Assembly (NCBI GenBank): GCA_017499595.2
Contig: CM039009.1
Coordinates: forward strand, 310,001 to 374,000
Length of the DNA stretch: 64,000 nucleotides
Source of the DNA: Psilocybe cubensis
Lineage: Eukaryota
Reading direction: 5' to 3'
Positions 50,700 through 51,308 of the stretch are shown here, piece by piece. The notes below the pieces were generated by a model, which was not told where the DNA came from, did no database searches, and worked only from the letters and a program-made list of their open reading frames with translations. The position numbers and the translations under genes are program-made. Each line of letters opens with the position of its first letter. The stretch's first letter is position 1.

Positions 50700-51308
50700 G
50701 GCAGTTGCCCAAGGTAGGGTATATATCCTGGCGGGCAGTTTCCCAACTGCCCAAATTGATGTATCACCCCGACGACTTGGTCACATGACTATGAGAATAA
50801 ACACGAAATAATAAAATTCCATGTAAGGGATTCGAACCCTGAACACATCAAGCATAGCAACACTATACCAACTACACCACAACGCTGTAAGGGATGCTCC
50901 AGATATTATACACCTTATACCCAACCCTAACCTCCTAACTAACAAAATGAACTTATCCACCCAACCCTAAACCTCTAAACCCTAACCAAACCTAACAGCT
51001 ATTTACATGGTACATCAAATATCCCAACCAACCCTAATCTCTAACCCTAAGCCCTAAACCCTAAGCCCTAAGCCCTAATCCCTAACCCTAAACCAAGCTA
51101 ATCCGTGTCTTTGTAGCATAGCTGCTATGTTAATTGTGCGTTAATATGTGATTGATTTAGAATGCTGCTGGTTCGAACCCGGCATTTGACATTTTGTTAT
51201 TTCACATTTATTCTCATAGTCATGTGACCAAGTCGCCGGGGTGATACATCAATTTGGGCAGTTGGGAAACTGCCCGCCAGGATATATACCCTACCTTGGG
51301 CAACTGCC
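50700..51308. mobile_element. ~610-bp TIR element containing two tRNA-like promoters and telomere-like repeats
   Basis: ~118-bp TIRs (50700-50817 / 51191-51308). B boxes at 50827-50838 (minus) and 51170-51180 (plus). ccctaa-type repeats at 50920-51100. No clear TSD. Confidence 0.75.
50920..51100. repeat. Degenerate interstitial telomere-like (CCCTAA)n repeats
   Basis: aaccctaa, ccctaag, ccctaaa and ccctaat units, densest at 51030-51092. Confidence 0.85.

Follow-up and report, generated by a model that had tools for sequence, protein, structure and literature searches.

A non-autonomous Kyakuja-type KDZ element in Psilocybe cubensis with a core that belongs to a polarised subtelomeric repeat family

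The window, a stretch of 64,000 nucleotides of Psilocybe cubensis DNA (G000:C12:310001-374000), contains a 676-bp element that, judged by its ends, is a non-autonomous KDZ transposon of Kyakuja type. The element is mobile and recently inserted, and its insertion is polymorphic among strains. Its core cassette belongs to a polarised subtelomeric repeat family found at 33 other places in the assembly searched (46.6 Mb, 21 contigs), which is new. We give an even chance to the explanation that the cassette is an old passenger of the KDZ element and that an older member of the same family seeded the subtelomeric boundary repeat.

Ends, mobility and relatives of the element

An earlier note on this DNA had described an inverted-repeat element at 50700..51308, with two outward-facing tRNA-like units around a telomere-repeat core. 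Its symmetric layout of arm, unit, telomere-like core, unit and arm was confirmed where it had been placed (Table 1), and the internal palindromes it had seen in the arms are present. The proposed limits were not upheld. The element is larger than first reported, with true ends at 50667 and 51342 that are set by a 7-bp duplication (one copy of ATGGTGT at each edge) and by an empty site. The proposed 118-bp terminal inverted repeats are real as arms (113/118 matches) but subterminal: the element runs 33-34 bp past each arm, and these extreme ends are unlike each other. Compared over 139 nt (50700-50838 with 51170-51308), the arms are 91% complementary, and the 21 bp next to the outer 118 bp, which hold the two T-arms, match at 13/21. 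No ORF of ≥100 aa lies within the 676 bp.

Table 1. Features of the element, in positions of the window
Feature	Position	Strand	Remarks
Left target-site duplication	50660..50666	+	7 bp, ATGGTGT; empty-site joint with 7 shared letters in 4/4 runs
Whole non-autonomous KDZ (Kyakuja-type) element	50667..51342	.	676 bp; skip of 683 = 676 + 7
CAG-type terminus	50667..50699	+	first 14 bp have 5 exact matches, this one included; the other 4 are ends of large KDZ elements
Left subterminal inverted arm, 118 bp	50700..50817	+	outer ~70 bp like autonomous KDZ ends; inner part unlike
Palindrome in left arm, GGGCAGTT-TCCC-AACTGCCC	50733..50752	+	read from the sequence
tRNA-like unit 1	50813..50886	-	A box TGGTGTAGTTGG 50879-50868, B box GGTTCGAATCCC 50838-50827, T4 50816-50813; intronless-tRNA spacing
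Telomere-like core	50900..51106	+	C-rich strand on +; 68-76% identity to 12 subtelomeric copies, 70% to the C4 copy
tRNA-like unit 2	51107..51195	+	A-like box 51114-51125, T arm 51167-51183, T4 51192-51195
Right subterminal inverted arm, 118 bp	51191..51308	-	inverted-repeat comparison
CAC-type terminus	51309..51342	-	resembles CACCTGTAGT ends of large KDZ elements
Right target-site duplication, 7 bp	51343..51349	+	end comparison and empty-site joint

The empty site, in which 50659 is joined to 51343, was found in all four runs, which came from four studies. One contig that spans it (X10, which we guess to be RNA) also skips a 56-bp GT..AG intron just downstream. A TPR-CHAT gene adjoins the element, which has probably inserted into the 5' region of a transcript, ahead of the TPR-CHAT frame. 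This gene and the KDZ elements agree with a mushroom-forming basidiomycete as host. Positions 49000-50194 of the window hold a HAD-like frame and, after it, one with a DLDTT motif, with no Pfam match at E 0.01; we presume that these frames resemble fungal HAD-like terpene cyclases.

Autonomous partners were found in this genome, where the unlike CAG… and CAC… ends are common to KDZ transposons of 12-16 kb. The same pair of unlike ends bounds three large elements (12.4, 12.4 and 15.8 kb), and a 7-bp duplication of its own flanks each of them. The 12.4-kb element on contig C12 encodes KDZ (PF18758, E 4e-29) and CxC2 (PF18803, E 1e-36), both over the cut-off, and has a weak Tet_JBP match below it. 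PF18758 was also found at end-sharing elements on C11, C12 (C12b), C2 and C6, and the KDZ copies of C11 and C12 are 99.8% identical. The first 100 bp of the 676-bp element are 74-79% identical to autonomous KDZ ends. The CCCAACTGCCCAA half of its arm palindrome is common to KDZ ends (16 exact matches; control 0), and the repeated GGGCAGTT-type motif may be a transposase site.

Kyakuja elements are defined by a 7-bp target-site duplication (TSD), 5'-CA..TG-3' termini and the lack of terminal inverted repeats (Kojima 2025, PMC12730594, section 3.2.1). The element has a 7-bp TSD and CA..TG termini without terminal inverted repeats, and the autonomous elements that share its ends carry a KDZ transposase. 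On these features we class it as a non-autonomous KDZ element of Kyakuja type, a lineage name based on TSD length and termini rather than on transposase clade. As Kyakuja-1_LB and Kyakuja-2_LB are presented in that paper, the element shares with them the TSD length, CA..TG termini, non-inverted extreme ends and an agaricomycete-like host, and its partners likewise carry KDZ, CxC2 and a weak Tet_JBP match. Unlike these two, taken over the first 400 letters of their sequences, it is 676 bp long and non-coding, with a 118-bp near-perfect subterminal arm and a tRNA-like and telomere-like interior. The main text of PMC12730594 mentions neither tRNA nor a non-autonomous Kyakuja, and the treatment of KDZ in bioRxiv 10.1101/2024.08.15.608186, in the parts available to us, concerns coding elements only. 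A published description of this layout, or of a non-autonomous Kyakuja, was not found in the literature outside Repbase and most subscription papers.

Among 20 further KDZ loci (of 96 KDZ matches), none was an autonomous element with ends of >79% identity or with this core. Neither the core nor the arms occurred as parts of these 20 loci, save for weak end similarity in two. A related KDZ transposase would move the element in trans by cut-and-paste, probably one from the young C11/C12 family or from an unseen closer one. As a natural substrate of 676 bp, the element delimits the cis needs of Kyakuja transposition, with asymmetric tips and the repeated GGGCAGTT-type motif.

DNA and pattern searches of the assembly returned no second intact copy, a lower bound, as diverged copies may be missed. 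One old copy with the full layout lies at C4:2806.3-2806.8k (64% identical, 30% GC, with a C>T/G>A bias); its two arms and two units are all still present, the A boxes recognisable but the B boxes decayed. The genome-wide check of the inverted repeat suggested earlier thus yielded one intact and one decayed full copy, but no multi-copy family, in 46.6 Mb. Four pattern hits with three mismatches all belong to an unrelated 1.1-kb element. In metagenomes, the inner-arm pattern had 0 matches, and the 13 matches to the layout pattern were all unrelated tRNA genes, SINE-like or telomeric sequence.

MITEs are short and non-coding, with inverted arms and a TSD, and the head of a tRNA-derived SINE consists of A and B boxes with a T-run. 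The element is like a MITE in being short, non-coding, recently mobile and TSD-bounded, with inverted arms, but its very low copy number (again a lower bound) rejects a high-copy MITE. Its units are like SINE heads in their A/B boxes and T-run. A tRNA-derived SINE was rejected on the two opposed heads inside KDZ ends and the lack of a LINE-like or LINE-derived tail and of a poly(A) or A-rich tail.

Several other features were noted in passing. Two adjacent non-autonomous elements at 18368-19465 and 19501-20408 of the window have TATGG..CCATA ends and 6-bp duplications (by eye) and fit the description of IS3EU in PMC12730594; the former has four copies (97.6-99.8%). A near-perfect foldback of ~660 bp lies at 20820-21481 of the window (by eye). 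At G000:C12:175.8-178.1k, the 15.8-kb element contains a nested 2.3-kb non-autonomous KDZ element, which has 461-bp arms and ends of the C10/C8 type and gave no A/B-box hit. At G000:C2:518.9-524.8k, the truncated C2 KDZ element is abutted by a 1958-aa frame in which Helitron-like Rep/helicase motifs can be seen by eye.

Pol III boxes and the shielding idea

The A and B boxes of unit 1, the plus-strand A-like box and both T4 runs lie exactly where the earlier note had put them, and the T arm is present on the plus strand, but with limits one base inside those claimed. The statement that the units are not copies of each other holds for their 5' halves, which differ, but the T-arm position and the 3' trailer are common to both. 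We scored the units with an A+B-box matrix trained on 20 distinct host tRNA box pairs, for which the training tRNAs score 21.3-28.8 bits. Unit 1 scored 27.2 bits and unit 2 23.8 bits (ranks 3 and 4); the 64-kb window has 21 hits of ≥13 bits, and the next after the two units scored 18.9 bits. Both units have an A box, a B box and a T4 run at tRNA spacing, the layout of a Pol III type-2 promoter. With the TSD and the empty site, these scores bear out the reading as a mobile inverted-repeat DNA element with two outward Pol III type-2 promoter-like units and a telomere-like core.

As tRNA genes, which the note had proposed to look for with tRNAscan-SE/Infernal, the units did not hold up. ARAGORN called no tRNA at either unit, Rfam returned no known RNA family, and the units fold no better than shuffles (z -0.63 and -1.47). 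A covariance model built from 17 tRNAs of the assembly placed them at ranks 3 and 4 of 19, with only 18.6 bits and 15.2 bits (rough E of 0.005 and 0.049), whereas two LTR-borne tRNA-like genes reached 51-53 bits. The curated cloverleaf threshold was missed, and tRNA genes are ruled out. By their boxes and spacing, the units are tRNA-derived, promoter-like sequences of Pol III type 2 with host-grade A/B boxes. Compared locally with 29 host tRNA loci, a part of the set, unit 1 came closest to Gly(TCC) (z 5.3) and unit 2 to Ser(CGA) (z 6.1), but neither match is strong enough to name a donor tRNA. Elsewhere in the window, at 40510-40581 and 40767-40838, two tRNA-Tyr(ATA)-like cloverleaves lie in TG..CA LTR-like repeats that are themselves inside a CACCCG tract, and the genome has further copies elsewhere.

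The boxes might act as a shield: TFIIIC-bound A/B boxes and telomere-protein sites would keep silencing away from the element, or arm RNAs would arise by Pol III read-through, and either would keep it mobile. In yeasts, tRNA genes and Tbf1 sites have barrier activity, and both B boxes of the recently inserted window copy are intact, with scores of host-tRNA grade. Inward-facing A/B/T-run units of 13-23 bits also occur ≤1.6 kb from the CAG/CAA end in the C11/C12a, C12b, C2 and C6 elements, that is, in 4/4 end-sharing autonomous subfamilies, against 11/800 shuffled strands and 0/4 CAC ends of the same elements. These inward units (L040, L042, L043 and L187) sit between the subterminal repeats and the 3' end of the last gene. 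However, the C11 and C12b units are homologous, so that the four make at most three independent cases in a post hoc test, and the tRNA covariance model found none of them. The 20 other KDZ loci are at background (8 hits vs 4-7 in shuffled sequence), which rejects Pol III boxes as a general KDZ trait, and the more distant C10/C8 KDZ family has no A/B-box hit at 13 bits. As a separate observation, the consensus sequences of the rust elements hAT7-3_PGr and hAT7-4_PGr (PMC12730594, Table S1) show by eye a reverse B-box-like motif ~380 bp inside the end.

Other copies also speak against a shield. Three of the four runs contain a sister copy; in one of them, X5, its right end continues into different flanking DNA. 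It has 27 differences from the window copy in 507 bp (95% identity) and two short deletions. C>T or G>A accounts for 19 of the 24 listed differences; 7/10 CpGs are changed, including C-to-T at both B-box CpGs, and 10/72 CpA sites. The B-box changes thus match the CpG decay of the sister as a whole. The window copy thus appears to be the less mutated one, and the sister was presumably methylated, hence unprotected, despite carrying the cassette. B boxes are likewise decayed in the C4 copy and mostly missing from the subtelomeric copies, with that of unit 2 in 2/12 and that of unit 1 in 0/4. These losses, and the single intact copy in the assembly, give no support to A/B boxes conserved as a shielding device, and we regard a functional shield as distinctly improbable.

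In the passenger explanation that we prefer, the interior would be an old cassette of a tRNA-derived unit, a telomere-like tract and a second tRNA-derived unit, whose Pol III boxes may decay once a copy is methylated, as one sister and one old copy suggest. A function beyond that of a pure passenger is hinted at because the window copy keeps both B boxes and 4/4 end-sharing subfamilies carry an inward unit. Were the barrier idea true, the cassette would add to the TET gene of these KDZ elements a second means of escaping silencing; the evidence leans against it.

The subtelomeric core family and its origin

The CCCTAA-type repeats reported for the core are a real telomere-like tract, with 13 occurrences of CCTAA in 190 bp vs 0.11 expected. 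They are, however, a degenerate mix of 6- and 7-mers (CCCTAAG, CCCTAAA, CCCTAAT and CCCTAA variants), and the host telomere unit itself, carried by the contig ends, is CCCTAAA.

A 17-bp core motif occurs at 34 places, the window and 33 others. On chromosome-size contigs, 29 of these places lie 23-108 kb from the end to which they point, on 12 different chromosome ends; the remainder comprise one on the 33-kb contig C19 and three on C15 (63-122 kb, + strand). All 33 other places have telomere polarity and are near contig ends. Position and polarity carry this result, as a reverse-read control (20/15) is uninformative because the motif is nearly its own reverse.

We examined flanks and structure in 12 of the 33 subtelomeric copies. 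Their cores are 83-100% alike and 68-76% identical to the window core, and their units stand in the same order as in the element. On the centromere side, 12/12 copies keep at least the beginning of unit 2 and are truncated at nested points; the two that reach the B box have it decayed, with the same C-to-T change. On the telomere side, the A-box half of unit 1 is kept in 4/12, none of which has the unit 1 B box. Telomere-side flanks fall into three shared classes (nine copies) and three singletons, whereas no two centromere-side flanks match (n = 12). In these copies, the core sits where largely shared distal DNA meets unique proximal DNA, much like X or HAR-CDEF; the 12 combine telomere-like motifs, a subtelomeric position, fixed polarity and a shared/unique junction.

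In Magnaporthe and Saccharomyces, HAR-CDEF and X are blocks of fused motifs with telomere-like repeats at transitions from shared subtelomere to chromosome-unique DNA, and the available part of that paper gives no origin for them (PMC1635262). The core family resembles both in being a fused-motif block at the same junction; unlike them as described there, it contains A/B boxes of tRNA origin, is present several times at an end and is also found inside a mobile DNA transposon. It is further comparable to TALT of Caenorhabditis elegans, internal DNA with telomere-like sequence that is duplicated to chromosome ends (PMC4595603). As presented in that source, TALT is unique DNA flanked by telomere-like tracts and is used in telomerase loss; the tract here is instead central, transposon-borne and 23-108 kb inside the ends. 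The same block thus occurs both inside a polymorphic DNA transposon and, with fixed polarity, at junctions on at least 12 chromosome ends, which makes its origin and its role in exchange between ends testable by comparative genomics.

A T-arm pattern search led to C2:4301.6k; there, an outward unit 2 directly adjoins a CAC-type KDZ terminus, and the telomere-like tract comes next. This longest subtelomeric copy (C2:4301.5k) has the KDZ terminus beside unit 2, on the same side as in the window element. In addition, 221 loose-end reads (X12) join a subtelomere-type unit 2 to 35 bp of inner arm, against a flank depth of ~20-50. We favour descent from the element because the subtelomeric copies are subsets of it, one has a KDZ end on the matching side, and the X12 reads reach the inner arm. 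Most likely, an older family member landed in a subtelomere. Its telomere-like tract would have let chromosome ends pair by homology, in one polarity, for exchange or break-induced copying, and end-to-end spread of truncated cores would have produced the shared distal/unique proximal junctions that they now mark. Transposon descent is unproven, as a KDZ end is present in one of the 12 examined copies, no target duplication was found for that copy, and the window, C4 and subtelomeric cores are about equidistant (66-76%), which leaves the core tree without a root.

Capture in the opposite direction would make the cassette a host X-like subtelomeric boundary repeat taken up by KDZ ends, with one arm copied across to give the symmetry. 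The 33 subtelomeric vs two interstitial copies fit such a course, as does the likeness among the 12 examined cores. Fungal DNA transposons are described as capturing genes (PMC12730594), and telomere-like repeats occur at the same junction type in HAR-CDEF and X (PMC1635262). We nevertheless think capture unlikely: the subtelomeric copies are truncated subsets of the element, one with a KDZ terminus on the matching side, X12 reads link subtelomeric-type copies to the inner arm, and the old C4 copy was already complete in its arms and units.

Building on descent from the transposon, a rather doubtful extension is that a KDZ mini-transposon with a Pol III-box and telomere-repeat module was domesticated as an X-like boundary element. 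It would set the exchange junctions of distal blocks, and mobile intact copies in chromosome arms might act as portable chromatin barriers or seeds of rearrangement.

Spread through RNA was also weighed: the cassette would end transcripts as a roadblock terminator, and telomere-attaching Penelope-like reverse transcriptases would copy the RNAs onto chromosome ends. The strict telomere polarity and the nested proximal truncations within ~100 bp of the core suit this mechanism, and large ORF arrays interspersed with telomere repeats, which we take to be Coprina elements, adjoin the C2 copies. On the other side, the junctions lie 25-100 bp beyond the telomere-like tract, not inside it, and recombination between ends keeps polarity as well; we judge this route very improbable. 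The telomere-adjacent ORF arrays were rejected as a source of the core itself, with which they have only the plain telomere repeat in common and no tRNA-like match. Stacked frames of 1187-1188 aa, separated by telomere repeats, were observed at G000:C2:4303-4331k; these we presume to be telomere-attaching Penelope-like elements.
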